In this document: positions 4,129-41,433 of the stretch, piece by piece
Position numbering within the stretch: the first letter of the stretch is position 1
Layout: each line of letters opens with the position of its first letter
Origin: Candidatus Omnitrophota bacterium
Lineage (GTDB): Bacteria > Omnitrophota > Gorgyraeia > Gygaellales > UBA12090
Assembly (NCBI GenBank): GCA_030674475.1
Contig: JAUSCZ010000033.1
Coordinates: 52,018-116,017 of the forward strand
Length of the DNA: 64,000 nucleotides
Reading direction: 5' to 3'
Translations under genes and position numbers: made by a program
The notes under the pieces: model-generated
The model's database searches: none
The model's input: only the letters and a program-made list of their open reading frames with translations
What the model was told of the DNA's origin: nothing

Positions 4129-4506
4129 ATGGCTAAGAAGATATTGATAGCGGATGATGATCCCGCGGTTTCCCAGACCTTAAAAACAGCTTTGGAAAGA
4201 AGCGGTTATGAGGCTGACATAGCCGCCAACGGCGAGGAATGTCTGCAGAAGGTTTTGATAAATAAGCCGGATTTACTGTTATTGGATATTATGATGCCGC
4301 GGATGGACGGATTTTCTTTTTTGGTGGCCATCAAAGAGTTAAGGGCTTTAACCGGGAGCGCGCCCCAGATGCCGGTGATGGTGATTACCGGCAAAGATAA
4401 TGAAGTAAACCGGAGCTTGATGACCCATGAGGATATTAAGGATTACATCTTAAAGCCGTTTGATCTGAAAGAGCTTTTAAGCAAGATTAAGAAAACCTTA
4501 GAGTGA
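4129..4506 (+). CDS. single-domain response regulator (CheY-like receiver)
   Basis: DDD...LLLLDIMMP...K receiver signature; 125 aa. Confidence 0.8.
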   Translation: MAKKILIADDDPAVSQTLKTALERSGYEADIAANGEECLQKVLINKPDLLLLDIMMPRMDGFSFLVAIKELRALTGSAPQMPVMVITGKDNEVNRSLMTHEDIKDYILKPFDLKELLSKIKKTLE

Positions 4507-4542
4507 TTGCCGGTCTGAGAATAATTTTTGCCTGTTCCCCTT

Positions 4543-4572
4543 GACAAATTAAAATTTTGTGTTATACTTTAA
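4543..4572 (+). promoter_or_regulatory. sigma70-like promoter (TTGACA, 16 bp spacer, extended -10 TGtTATACT)
   Basis: Near-consensus hexamers read directly from the sequence. Confidence 0.55.
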
Positions 4573-4674
4573 TTAGAAATTTGCACTTTGACAATTAAAC
4601 AAGAAATACCATTTGTCCCGCAGAAAAGCGGGATCCCGCTAAAGTGTTAAAATACCAAAGCGGGAAAAAAGGCA

Positions 4675-4760
4675 AATTATCCGCAAGGATAAGACGCAAA
4701 GCTTCCGGTCCCTCGATGCTAAAGTAAGGGATAGCGGAGCTACCAAAGGGTGAAAGCACT
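4675..4760 (+). promoter_or_regulatory. candidate c-di-GMP-I (GEMM) riboswitch aptamer
   Basis: GCAAGG...GACGCAAAGCttCCGGtCC...AGCGGaGcUACC matches the GEMM hallmarks (GACGCAAAGC, GG.C, AGC.GGG.UACC) recalled from the Vc2 aptamer. Sits between a promoter and a terminator. Confidence 0.5.
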
Positions 4761-4765
4761 AATTA

Positions 4766-4799
4766 ACCCTAAAAAATAAGCCTTTAGGGTTTTTTATTG
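4766..4799 (+). terminator. rho-independent terminator (ccctaaa / tttaggg stem + T-run); likely expression platform of the riboswitch
   Basis: 7 bp GC-containing stem followed by TTTTTTATT. Confidence 0.6.
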
Positions 4800-5007
4800 C
4801 CGTTTAAAGAAGAAGATTTCAAAGCCCTTACGGAAAGTTTGCCTTGTGATTCGGTAACTTTAAGTCTGTAAGGGCTTTTTGTTTGAATCTAACCTACCAG
4901 CCACGGTAAGTTTTTTCAATATAGTTATCGCTAATTGGAGAGGAAAGTCTATTCCCCTGGATAAAGCGGTAATTATATTGAAAAGGGGTTAGCCCCGGGA
5001 GGAGAAA

Positions 5008-5286
5008 ATGAAAAAAGATGTAAGTACTCATAGGGTGGTAACCTTTTTGACCAGGGAAGAGCTGGAATTTTTGGATAAACTGGAGAAAGATATGATGTTT
5101 TCTACCGGCAGGCATCTCTCGCGCTCCCAGATTCTTCAGGATATGGCTGAGCTTTTGTCTAAGACCACGATGAACGCGATAGGGATAAAGAGTGATGATG
5201 AGCTCAAAAAGAAAATACAGGAAGCCATATCCAAAATGAACCAACAGGATAAAGAAAAAAATCCCCAGGATAAAAGTGAGGTGTAG
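5008..5286 (+). CDS. small hypothetical protein, possible ribbon-helix-helix DNA-binding protein
   Basis: GGGAGGAG RBS. N-terminus VVTFLTREELEFLDKL resembles the RHH beta-strand/helix. Confidence 0.45.
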   Translation: MKKDVSTHRVVTFLTREELEFLDKLEKDMMFSTGRHLSRSQILQDMAELLSKTTMNAIGIKSDDELKKKIQEAISKMNQQDKEKNPQDKSEV

Positions 5287-5287
5287 A

Positions 5288-5482
5288 ATGAATATCTATC
5301 CGAATAATTTAAAACTGCGGGAACTCTTTACCAAGGGCGGGGTGTTGCTTTTTAATATTTATCGGCCCGAAGCTGTCTATAAAGGCGAGATAACATTATT
5401 ACCCGTGGTGGATTGTTTTCAGAAGCGGGTTGTGCATATAAGGGAATATCTGTATAAGGAAAATGATGGAGAGGAGGAGTAA
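5288..5482 (+). CDS. small hypothetical protein (64 aa from the internal ATG)
   Basis: ORF with GTGAGGTG upstream; no recognisable domain. Confidence 0.3.
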   Translation: MNIYPNNLKLRELFTKGGVLLFNIYRPEAVYKGEITLLPVVDCFQKRVVHIREYLYKENDGEEE

Positions 5483-5484
5483 AG

Positions 5485-6519
5485 ATGAAGTCAAGCAAAT
5501 TATTTTTATTGGTGGGTGTCTTAGACTTGTGTTTTCTGATTGGAGTGCTTCCAAGATTGCAGGCCCAGGAAGAAGCGGCATCTCAGGTTGAGCCTTCCGC
5601 GAGCGCGCCAGAAGTGTCCGGCTCAGGCACCTGGAAGCAGGAGCTTATTTCTGACCGGCAGGCTCTTAAAGAACAGCATCAGTCAATAGCGGAAAATGCT
5701 CAAGCCGCCAAGCAGGAGGAGCAGCAGTTAAAGGATCAGATTCATCAGGCGGTACAGTCAGGCGATTATGAAACAGCCAGGAGCCTGAAAGATCAGTTTA
5801 AAGAAACCCATCAGGAAAACATTGAACAGATACATGGCGATATTCAGGCGTTTCAGGAATCAAGGCAGGAGTTTAAAAGTGATTTGCAGAGCGCCCGCCA
5901 GGAAAAGAGGGATTACCAATCACAGGGAGAGGGGGAAACATCAGGTTTTAATCCTCCCGGAGTTGGCCCGAATAATCCCCCGGGCAGAGATTTGCCGCCA
6001 GGACTAAGAGATAAAGCGGAAAACAAGTTTGATCGCCGGGAAGACTTGCGAGACAGACGTGAAGATGTCTGGGATAAGAAGGAAGATGCCCGGGATAAGA
6101 GAGAAGATATCCAGGATAAGAGAGAGGATATCTATGACCGCAGGCACGATGGCGGATTTTTAGACAAGTTAGAGGATAAGGCCGATAGGGCTGAAGATAA
6201 ATTTGACCGCAAGGAGGATGTCCGCGATAAAGCTGAAAACAAGTTTGATCGCCGGGAAGATAGGCGGGATAGGCGTGAGGATGTCCGGGATAGAAAAGAA
6301 AATTTGGGAGATAAAGTCCGGGCGCATCAAGACCGCGGCGTCCGAGATCACGGCGCGGGTGTCGGAGCTGGCAGGGGGCAAGGTGGTGAGCATAGGGCGG
6401 ATGCCTCAATGCATAGGGAAAATAAACCCGCGCGTGCCGGAGGCGGCGAACATAGAGGTGGCGGCGCTCCAGCGCGTGCCGGCGGAGGTGGTCATGGAGG
6501 CGGAGGCGGCCATCATTGA
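5485..6519 (+). CDS. secreted low-complexity protein with R/D/E/K-rich repeats and a Gly/His-rich C-terminus
   Basis: Signal peptide; duplicated DKxENKFDRREDxRDRREDV blocks (nt 6001-6060 vs 6226-6300); GGGGHGGGGGHH tail. Confidence 0.6.
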   Translation: MKSSKLFLLVGVLDLCFLIGVLPRLQAQEEAASQVEPSASAPEVSGSGTWKQELISDRQALKEQHQSIAENAQAAKQEEQQLKDQIHQAVQSGDYETARSLKDQFKETHQENIEQIHGDIQAFQESRQEFKSDLQSARQEKRDYQSQGEGETSGFNPPGVGPNNPPGRDLPPGLRDKAENKFDRREDLRDRREDVWDKKEDARDKREDIQDKREDIYDRRHDGGFLDKLEDKADRAEDKFDRKEDVRDKAENKFDRREDRRDRREDVRDRKENLGDKVRAHQDRGVRDHGAGVGAGRGQGGEHRADASMHRENKPARAGGGEHRGGGAPARAGGGGHGGGGGHH

Positions 6520-7861: not shown

Positions 7862-7936
7862 CGGGGCGTGGCTCAGTTTGGCTAGAGCACTTGAATGGGG
7901 TTCAAGAGGTCACAGGTTCAAGTCCTGTCGCCCCGA
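7862..7936 (+). tRNA. tRNA-Pro (anticodon GGG)
   Basis: Manual cloverleaf: acceptor CGGGGCG/CGCCCCG, D-arm GCTC..GAGC, anticodon stem CTTGA/TCAAG with loop ATGGGGT, T-arm ACAGG TTCAAGT CCTGT, discriminator A. Confidence 0.85.
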
Positions 7937-8102: not shown

Positions 8103-8207
8103 GTTCAAGTCCTGTCGCCCCGACTAAAATATTATCACGCGAAGGACTTGAACAAAAGAGGAGTTTGAGGGGAAAAGATGATTTTCCCCTCAAGAAACGC
8201 TTCTTTG
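8103..8207 (+). repeat. direct repeat copy 2 (duplicate tRNA-Pro 3' end + downstream hairpin)
   Basis: ttcaagtcctgtcgccccgact... repeated 187 bp downstream of copy 1. Confidence 0.9.
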
Positions 8208-8246
8208 CGCCATCAATCATCAACTAAAACTGACGGAGGTGAAATT

Positions 8247-8603
8247 ATGGTTTACGCCGGATCTGAAAGAAGAAAACAGCCACGGGTGGCGGGAAAGTTT
8301 GTGGTGTCTTACCGGATCAAGGCCGAGGTGGACAACTATGACATTTCCCAAACTCGTAACTTAAGCCTGGGAGGAATGATGTTGACTACCAATCGGGAAT
8401 TTACTTTAGGGACGGTTTTGGCTATTGATATACGACTTCCCTTTTTCATTGACGCCATAAATCTAACCGGAAGGGTTATTGATTCAAAAGAGGTGGTCAA
8501 GGATTTGATTTATGATACCAGGATTCAGTTTTTAGAGATTGATTCCAAGTCCGCGGGCATAGTTAATGATACGGTGGGATATTATTTAAAGACCCAGAAA
8601 TAA
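8247..8603 (+). CDS. PilZ-domain protein (c-di-GMP binding)
   Basis: RRKQPR and NLSLGGMML motifs (RxxxR ... D/NxSxxG). Start placed at the internal ATG, because the upstream part of the ORF lies in the duplicated sequence. Confidence 0.7.
   Translation: MVYAGSERRKQPRVAGKFVVSYRIKAEVDNYDISQTRNLSLGGMMLTTNREFTLGTVLAIDIRLPFFIDAINLTGRVIDSKEVVKDLIYDTRIQFLEIDSKSAGIVNDTVGYYLKTQK

Positions 8604-39780: not shown

Positions 39781-41433
<1,653 letters not shown>

Follow-up and report, generated by a model that had tools for sequence, protein, structure and literature searches.

Does the leader of a small operon in a Candidatus Omnitrophota bacterium contain a working riboswitch and, if so, which ligand does it sense and in which direction does it act? 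The operon lies in the 64,000-nt stretch of contig JAUSCZ010000033.1 that we analysed (hereafter the window; coordinates are window positions, + strand) and encodes proteins of 92, 64 and 344 aa. A preliminary description of the sequence had proposed a riboswitch of the cyclic di-GMP class I (c-di-GMP-I, or GEMM-I) upstream of these genes. We find a genuine, structured element whose position is conserved. We consider it likely that it is a class I c-di-GMP riboswitch with a canonical binding site, and that it acts as a transcriptional OFF switch by means of two terminators.

We used two independent sources of models to identify the aptamer. The window was scanned with cmscan against Rfam at the gathering thresholds, which are 35 bits for RF01051 (c-di-GMP-I) and 59 bits for RF03167 (c-di-GMP-I-GGC); the output gives only the top member of each clan, here clan CL00126. 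We also used homologs of the 92-aa gene to retrieve 64 related loci from collections of genomes and metagenomes. With L001, a Logan contig that is identical to the window across the operon and in which the same three open reading frames (ORFs) are called as genes, this makes 65 loci. From these we aligned 28 distinct aptamers located upstream of 92-aa gene homologs, leaving out the window's own clade, and built from them a covariance model (R1) that is independent of Rfam. Positions within the aptamer follow the numbering of Vc2.

The Rfam scan revealed a single riboswitch match in the 64-kb window, at 4662-4748 on the + strand (59.0 bits, E = 2e-11, clan CL00126). R1 finds the same element at 4666-4743 with 65 bits (E = 5.8e-16). 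The region 4575-4900 folds far better than expected (z = -5.4 relative to shuffled sequences), and none of 100 shuffles was as good. The position of the element is conserved as well, since in 53 of the 65 loci R1 detects an aptamer ahead of the homolog of the 92-aa gene. Eleven of the 12 loci lacking a match hold at most 296 nt of upstream sequence; the last one, L007, has 700 nt and no aptamer. R1 gave a second match in the window, at 40860-40930 (16.9 bits, E = 0.027). This one falls within the coding sequence of groEL and lacks P1a, and we discarded it as a chance match.

The core of the aptamer spans 4665-4743 (+ strand), as delimited by the Rfam match, by R1 and by the covariation in the relatives. 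It starts with the core junction J1/2 (AAAAAAG), whose G is G20 (4671). Helix P1a (4672-4697) follows; it is capped by a GCAA tetraloop (4683-4686) and includes C44 (4695). Next come the ligand contact position A47 at 4698, helix P1b at 4700-4741 with G83 at 4734, and finally A91 and C92 (4742-4743), which form the 3' end of the core. The three motifs that the preliminary description had quoted as hallmarks of GEMM riboswitches all have a place in this architecture. GCAAGG, at 4683-4688, is the tetraloop followed by the start of the 3' strand of P1a, while GACGCAAAGCTTCCGGTCC lies at 4693-4711 and AGCGGAGCTACC at 4733-4744.

Covariation of the helices had been put forward as a check of the initial proposal, and it gives strong support to P1a and P1b and weaker support to P1. 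When the three-helix structure is laid over the alignment of the 28 relatives, 87.1% of the cells are paired, against 73.2% in shuffles. Compensatory double changes occur in 21 of the 30 pairs, and none of 500 shuffles reaches the observed values. Sliding the 3' partners by one to three columns, as a control, lowers pairing to 37-50%. P1a pairs in 98.8% of the cells, with compensatory changes in all six of its pairs, and P1b in 95.9%, with compensatory changes in 10 of 13. P1 has compensatory changes in five of its nine pairs, and only 65.5% of its cells pair because its register varies. The window sequence itself forms both P1a and P1b, according to its folding and to its alignment to R1.

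The nucleotides of the binding site are the next element of the diagnosis. The ligand contacts of GEMM-I riboswitches are G20, A47 and C92, and their universal interhelical Watson-Crick pair is C44-G83 in Vc2 (PMC4744006). These five nucleotides are invariant across the 28 relatives and all of them are present in the window, where the tertiary pair expected by homology would be C4695-G4734. Hence, by every defining feature that can be tested at the level of the sequence, the element is a member of the c-di-GMP-I class and is predicted to bind its ligand. The proposal of a GEMM riboswitch is thus borne out by the clan match, by the R1 match and by the canonical G20, A47 and C92.

The assignment within the clan requires more care. 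The Rfam model with the highest score for the window is RF03167, and its 59.0 bits equal the gathering score of 59 bits. The match thus stands exactly at the border, and the sub-threshold Infernal score that was to refute the initial proposal did not occur. The score falls to 51.9 bits when the core alone is given as input. If this match were taken at face value, the element would be a c-di-GMP-I-GGC variant, with an altered site and a ligand other than c-di-GMP. Of 18 related aptamers that we scanned, 16 also have RF03167 as their top model (54.3-69.7 bits). We know of no ligand for this variant class. However, the two consensus lines given by cmscan for the junction, GACGC-G-AA in RF03167 (GACGCGAA) and GACGC-A-AA in RF01051 (GACGCAAA), differ at one position, which is position 47. 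Judging from these lines, 'GGC' would stand for G20, G47 and C92. The window has an A there (A4698), a position left blank in the match line, and so do 28 of the 28 relatives, so the G47 that presumably defines RF03167 is absent from all of them. The 16 aptamers best matched by RF03167 all carry A47, and five of them score below its threshold (54.3-57.5 bits). Furthermore, L012, which shares the core of the window and departs from it only at the tip of P1b, is best matched by RF01051 (68.0 bits), and L005 scores 73.3 bits on RF01051. Because A47 relatives also match RF03167 best, this best match reflects overall similarity and not the defining nucleotide. The variant is therefore highly improbable. 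In terms of its predicted binding site the aptamer of the window is a canonical c-di-GMP-I aptamer, for which the RF03167 label is misleading.

Position 20 bears on another ligand. The element could sense 3',3'-cyclic GMP-AMP (cGAMP), as does GEMM-Ib of Geobacter, given that the fold is the same and that the classes are hard to tell apart with covariance models. Yet selectivity for cGAMP accompanies an A at position 20 (PMC6140456), and this position is a G in the window (G4671) and in all 28 relatives. We regard cGAMP sensing as extremely unlikely.

The peculiarity of this aptamer lies in P1. Its ancestral 5' strand (UACCAUUUG, 4607-4615, + strand) pairs with its 3' strand (CAAAGGGUG, 4744-4752, + strand) at eight of nine positions, and relatives show covariation in this helix, as in UCCUUUUG/CAAAAGGA and ACAUUG/CAAUGU. 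Between the 5' strand and J1/2 stands an insertion of 49 nt (4616-4664, + strand). It is a clean indel relative to L002, in which AUACCAUUUG is directly followed by AAAAAGGCAAA; the 49 extra bases of the window and of its four nearest relatives sit exactly at this join. The P1 5' strand of L002, the same as that of the window, thus directly abuts the junction. Both covariance models, Rfam and R1, align the core of the window without a proper P1, because the insertion lies between the P1 5' strand and the core. RNAfold closes P1 around the insertion, with pair probabilities of 0.64-0.96 in the window, which has it, and of 0.58-0.88 in L002, which lacks it. Folded alone (-24.2 kcal/mol), the insertion makes tandem GC hairpins, UCCCGC-AGAAAA-GCGGGA and UCCCGCU-...-AGCGGGA, and these two copies are the only occurrences of the exact pattern in the 64-kb window. 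The insertion-bearing form comprises three near-identical leader variants (window/L001, L012 and L019-L021), and both substitutions found within the insertion, in L012 and in L019-L021, preserve or add pairs.

Comparable pairs of hairpins are found elsewhere in the family. Two-hairpin insertions at the same boundary between P1 and J1/2 are present in L040, L043, L008 and L046, and L006, the sister of L040, has none. There is a second insertion site, between C44 and G45, which is occupied by two hairpins in L011, L030, L032, L034 and L048. These hairpins are of the type (C/U)CCGCC-N~7-GGCGG(G/A), whose density is 1.87 per kb in the leaders and 0.10 per kb in the flanks, i.e. 18 times higher in the former. 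GC hairpins of the leaders come in pairs when they are at the junction (beside G20 or C44/G45) and singly beside the ribosome-binding site. The idea that they are genome-wide repeats, akin to repetitive extragenic palindromes or to miniature inverted-repeat transposable elements, is not supported: CCCGC-N-GCGGG occurs five times in the window for 2.07 expected, and the hairpins are enriched in leaders. Two loci call for a separate remark. L043 has three hairpins that share a CCCGCCA/UGGCGGG stem, two of which are nearly identical. L048 has two adjacent model matches at 2617-2788 that resemble tandem aptamers, and folding shows them to be one aptamer split by a two-hairpin insertion.

The leader is preceded by a near-consensus promoter. 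An extended -10 promoter had been described at this place, and we find, within a few bases of it, a sigma-70-type promoter at 4541-4568 (+ strand), with a -35 element TTGACA (4541-4546), a 16-nt spacer and an extended -10 element TGtTATACT (4560-4568). It matches the consensus at 11 of 12 positions, to which the TG of the extended -10 must be added. The arrangement TTGAC(A/G)-N17-TGTTATACT is kept in L002, L012, L041, L043 and L008. Transcription would start at approximately 4575.

The predicted transcript includes a second TTGACA box (ACTTTGACAATTAA, 4585-4598, + strand), 48 nt 3' of the -35 element. The motif of the box, TTGACAAtTAAA at 4585-4598, has its counterpart at 4541-4553, and the boxes can also be written TTGACAATT. 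Such pairs of boxes, 47-52 nt apart, are found in many related loci irrespective of the sequence of P1. A DNA-binding protein may use the second box as its operator. We discarded two other roles. As a promoter, it has no plausible -10 element at 16-18 nt in any relative, and a start there would remove P1. As an alternative strand of P1, it has in its favour that, in the window, RNAfold pairs UUUGC.ACUUUG, from the region of the box, with the 3' strand of P1. This RNA role is unsupported, as relatives with other P1 sequences also conserve the box.

We then turn to the expression platform, whose terminators are known from sequence and folding (stems are predicted and U tracts are read). An intrinsic terminator had been noted at 4766-4799, with a second long hairpin at 4822-4880. 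Both are found again with minor shifts. Terminator 1 (AACCCUAAA / UUUAGGGUU, 4765-4798, + strand) has a 9-bp stem, in which 4765-4773 pairs with 4783-4791, a 9-nt loop and a U-rich tail; its predicted energy is -9.0 kcal/mol and the stem is followed by UUUUUUAUU. A simple terminator scan did not report it, as the 9-nt loop apparently exceeds the 3-8 nt limit of that scan. The second hairpin (4821-4878) turns out to be a terminator itself. In this terminator 2 (4821-4885, + strand), UUUUUGUUUG comes after a stem of about 19 bp (-25.4 kcal/mol). Nearly all relatives have a terminator right after the aptamer and most keep terminator 2; tandem terminators are present in most of them.

Both terminators have a potential competitor within the aptamer. 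In terminator 2, a 20-nt stretch of the 5' arm (4826-4845, CCUUACGGAAAGUUUGCCUU) shows 85% complementarity to the 5' half of the aptamer (4669-4688), a segment that spans G20, the 5' strand of P1a and the tetraloop. The duplex between them has a predicted energy of -24.5 kcal/mol, against -13.6 +/- 2.3 kcal/mol in dinucleotide-shuffled leaders, none of which was as good in 1000 trials. It is present in the minimum free energy (MFE) structure of a transcript ending at 4850. The two segments also change together: we find compensatory changes across the window, L002, L023, L033, L044 and L058, and examples of pairings between P1a and the arm of terminator 2 are AUCCG/CGGAA (window), AUUCG/CGAAU (L023 and L033), ACCAUU/AAUGGU (L044) and GCAGUAA/UUACUGC (L058). 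The motif UUGCC(U/G), complementary to the invariant GGCAA, is enriched sevenfold just 3' of the aptamer and is found in 25 of 44 leaders. For terminator 1 the competitor is the 3' strand of P1, whose AGGGU (4747-4751) may alternatively pair with ACCCU (4766-4770). This duplex (-7.9 kcal/mol) is in the MFE structure of a transcript ending at 4778. The last position of P1 is 4752 and the first of terminator 1 is 4765, and a constrained fold accommodates both (-69.2 kcal/mol). Since the two are free of overlap and can form together, the layout is that of an OFF switch.

These elements suggest the following scenario. Transcription would start from the promoter at 4541-4568. With c-di-GMP bound, P1 and P1a would be locked, terminators 1 and 2 would both form, and most transcripts would stop before the operon, which would be off. 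When the ligand is missing, the AGGGU of the P1 3' strand would take the ACCCU of the 5' arm of terminator 1, acting as antiterminator, and the 5' half of the aptamer (4669-4688) would take the 5' arm of terminator 2 (4826-4845). At low c-di-GMP the two terminators would thus be disabled, and the genes for the 92-aa, 64-aa and 344-aa proteins would be transcribed. We infer this polarity, as well as the kinetics, from the sequence and from folding models.

The opposite polarity is the obvious alternative. In an ON switch, c-di-GMP would prevent termination and induce the operon. Many c-di-GMP-I riboswitches are ON switches. Terminator 1 of the riboswitch Bc1 unfolds with rising c-di-GMP (PMC11218506), and folding predictions do not fix the polarity with certainty. 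Yet an ON switch needs a ligand-stabilised strand that overlaps an arm of a terminator, whereas here P1 ends before terminator 1 starts and both coexist. Moreover, the strands complementary to the 5' arms of the terminators lie in the folded aptamer; therefore, the ligand would free the terminators rather than block them. We judge an ON switch to be very unlikely.

Several observations weigh against the canonical OFF switch that we favour. Some concern the mechanism. The optimum of the full-length transcript is the terminator fold even without any term for the ligand (-71.2 kcal/mol, against -64.4 kcal/mol for the antiterminator state), which would require regulation to be kinetic. The antiterminator of terminator 1 has just 5 bp, and in many relatives the duplex of terminator 2 with the locus' own aptamer is no better than with the aptamers of other loci. 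Bc1, the one dual-terminator case that has been studied, was unresponsive to c-di-GMP in vivo (PMC11218506). Others concern ligand and binding. The score obtained for the window is that of RF03167, the top clan member listed by cmscan, and not that of RF01051. The insertion adjoins G20 at the ligand-binding junction, where it could impair binding, and the models align no proper P1. Finally, a motif search of the 64-kb window retrieved no ORF with a GGDEF motif, nor any with EAL or HD-GYP motifs.

Some of these observations are what one would expect of a decaying or inactivated riboswitch, in which the insertion broke P1 and J1/2 and the leader attenuates constitutively through its two terminators. 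The insertion does part the P1 5' strand from the junction and the models do align the core without P1; the terminators are the thermodynamic optimum, and Bc1 provides a precedent for a c-di-GMP riboswitch with two terminators that is unresponsive in vivo (PMC11218506). However, the nucleotides of the binding site and of the tertiary contact are all intact. The insertion-bearing form is common to the window/L001, L012 and L019-L021 with substitutions that keep or add pairs, P1 is as probable with the insertion as in L002 without it, and comparable insertions recur in members with intact cores at both sites (L040, L043, L008 and L046 at one; L011, L030, L032, L034 and L048 at the other). Since these cores are intact, the hairpins inserted in them do not resemble inactivating damage. 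Inactivation is thus improbable.

Downstream of the terminators, the leader ends with a structured element that precedes the ribosome-binding site (4893-5007, + strand, from MFE folds). It is made of a conserved box with a CC-rich 5' half (CCUACCAGCCACGGUA, 4893-4908), a 72-nt hairpin (4913-4984), a small hairpin (GGGGUUAGCCCC, 4985-4996) and the Shine-Dalgarno region (GGGAGGAG, 4997-5004), which is the predicted partner of the box; all are on the + strand. In the MFE folds the start of the box, 4893-4902, pairs with this Shine-Dalgarno region at 4997-5004. Relatives have the same order of components: the near-invariant box cCACCAGCCACGG(A/U)AGG, then GGGGUCAG, a GC hairpin and CCCGGAGG, which contains the Shine-Dalgarno sequence. 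The near-invariant loop has the form CCAGCCACGG(A/U)AGG, and the 10-mer CCAGCCACGG occurs exactly once per locus in 22 related loci, always in this leader. No Rfam family matches the element at E <= 10 in the region of the window or at E <= 1 in eight related loci. We considered and rejected a pairing between the CCAGCCACGG box and the 5' strand of P1b, for which there is no covariation. The pairing of the box (4893-4902) with the Shine-Dalgarno region probably adds translational control to the termination described above.

These additions raise the possibility that the leader is a composite regulatory RNA, in which the hairpins are functional modules and the pre-ribosome-binding-site element is a new cis-regulatory class. 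We hold this to be rather unlikely. If true, hairpin modules that serve, for example, as sites for one of the small proteins encoded by the operon would couple c-di-GMP sensing to feedback control. The element in front of the ribosome-binding site would then sequester the Shine-Dalgarno sequence, either as another sensor or by binding a protein.

What does the switch control? The three ORFs described downstream of it are all found, on the + strand: a conserved 92-aa protein (5008-5286), a conserved 64-aa protein (5288-5482) and a 344-aa protein (5485-6519). The latter has a signal-peptide-like N-terminus, a long run of charged repeats of 7-8 residues (D/E-K/R-R-E-D...) and a tail rich in Gly and His (GGGGHGGGGGHH), in line with the secreted, charged repeat protein announced at the outset. 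Many relatives conserve the first two genes as a pair. The third gene varies, and homologs of the 344-aa protein are found in some relatives only (L002, L021 and L027). The family of the 92-aa protein has 134 homologs. Every name given by their sources is Omnitrophota or Omnitrophica, and most of them are metagenome proteins without such a name. By this distribution of homologs, the 92-aa gene and the operon are specific to Omnitrophota.

Searches in Pfam, NCBIfam, PADLOC and the PDB sequences gave nothing significant for any of the three proteins. In the 92-aa protein, the N-terminal segment HRVVTFLTREELEFLDKLEKD is strongly conserved. The AlphaFold monomer of this protein, modelled at low confidence with a predicted local distance difference test (pLDDT) score of 60, shows an N-terminal coil followed by helices at residues 16-33 and 39-52, which is compatible with a ribbon-helix-helix protein and not diagnostic of it. 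RHH_3 matches one of 25 homologs of the 92-aa protein, at E = 0.049, which we take as noise. The preliminary description had called it a putative ribbon-helix-helix protein. No match in Pfam, NCBIfam or the PDB backs this fold, which is possible but unproven. The statement that the three products are typical c-di-GMP-controlled surface or matrix factors is conjecture, as none of them belongs to a known family.

Two genes mentioned together with the riboswitch are indeed in the window (their coordinates are given without strand). One codes for a PilZ protein (8178-8603; PF07238, E = 1e-10) and is 3.2 kb downstream, which we count in favour of a c-di-GMP riboswitch; the other codes for a stand-alone receiver domain (4129-4506; PF00072). 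The neighbourhood also includes a tRNA gene at 7862-7936 (RF00005, 63.2 bits), downstream of gpsA, which is found in L002 and L012 as well. In several relatives, small ORFs rich in Arg and Lys, e.g. MKRMHRKLHKKARRQQRRQLSFLEALRLY, recur 3' of the cassette (L004 3430-3621, L011 3139-3321, L035 3541-3687, L046 2168-2314 and L050 3297-3591). The window has none of them.

As a riboswitch this is an ordinary one, with a canonical c-di-GMP-I aptamer, and it is the lineage-specific additions that are unusual: the insertions of hairpin pairs at the junction, a second terminator complementary to the aptamer, and an element before the ribosome-binding site that is absent from Rfam. It ties c-di-GMP signalling in an uncultured phylum, the Omnitrophota, to a conserved cassette of 92-aa and 64-aa genes, and provides a handle on these genes. 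It is important to highlight that a best match to RF03167 can mislabel canonical aptamers, which matters for automated counts of 'variant' riboswitches. Automated annotation would divide this homogeneous family over two Rfam families. The relatives provide a natural series of aptamers with and without junction insertions, which are possible test cases for the tolerance of the GEMM-I junction. Similarly, the dual-terminator platform could serve to test if tandem terminators, with a second one complementary to the aptamer, sharpen the OFF response.

Among known systems, three come closest to the element. It shares with RF01051 and its representative Vc2 the architecture of P1, P1a and P1b, the GNRA tetraloop on P1a, the position in a 5' leader, the ligand contacts G20, A47 and C92, and the interhelical C44-G83. 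Vc2, from Vibrio cholerae, is also reported to be an OFF switch (bioRxiv 10.1101/617340). Unlike Vc2, the window has a 49-nt two-hairpin insertion between P1 and J1/2, a platform with two terminators, a GCAA tetraloop instead of GAAA, an uncultured Omnitrophota host and regulated genes that belong to no known family. The window sequence is also very close, overall, to the consensus of RF03167, from which it differs in having an A at both positions 47 and 91, where the model has a G; these are the conserved letters of the core that remain unmatched. Bc1, from the Bacillus cereus group, is an experimentally characterised dual-terminator c-di-GMP-I riboswitch with a complicated behaviour in vivo (PMC11218506). 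Like the window, it has a single aptamer, a long platform, two rho-independent terminators and evidence for an added translational layer (PMC11218506). The differences are the spacing of the stems (about 30 nt in the window and 28 bp in Bc1), unrelated lineages and downstream genes, and the logic: terminator 1 of Bc1 unfolds with the ligand while terminator 2 stays folded, whereas both terminators of the window are apparently opposed by parts of the ligand-free aptamer, in a coherent OFF design. By analogy, the riboswitch of the window would work most like Vc2, with a dual terminator that resembles that of Bc1.

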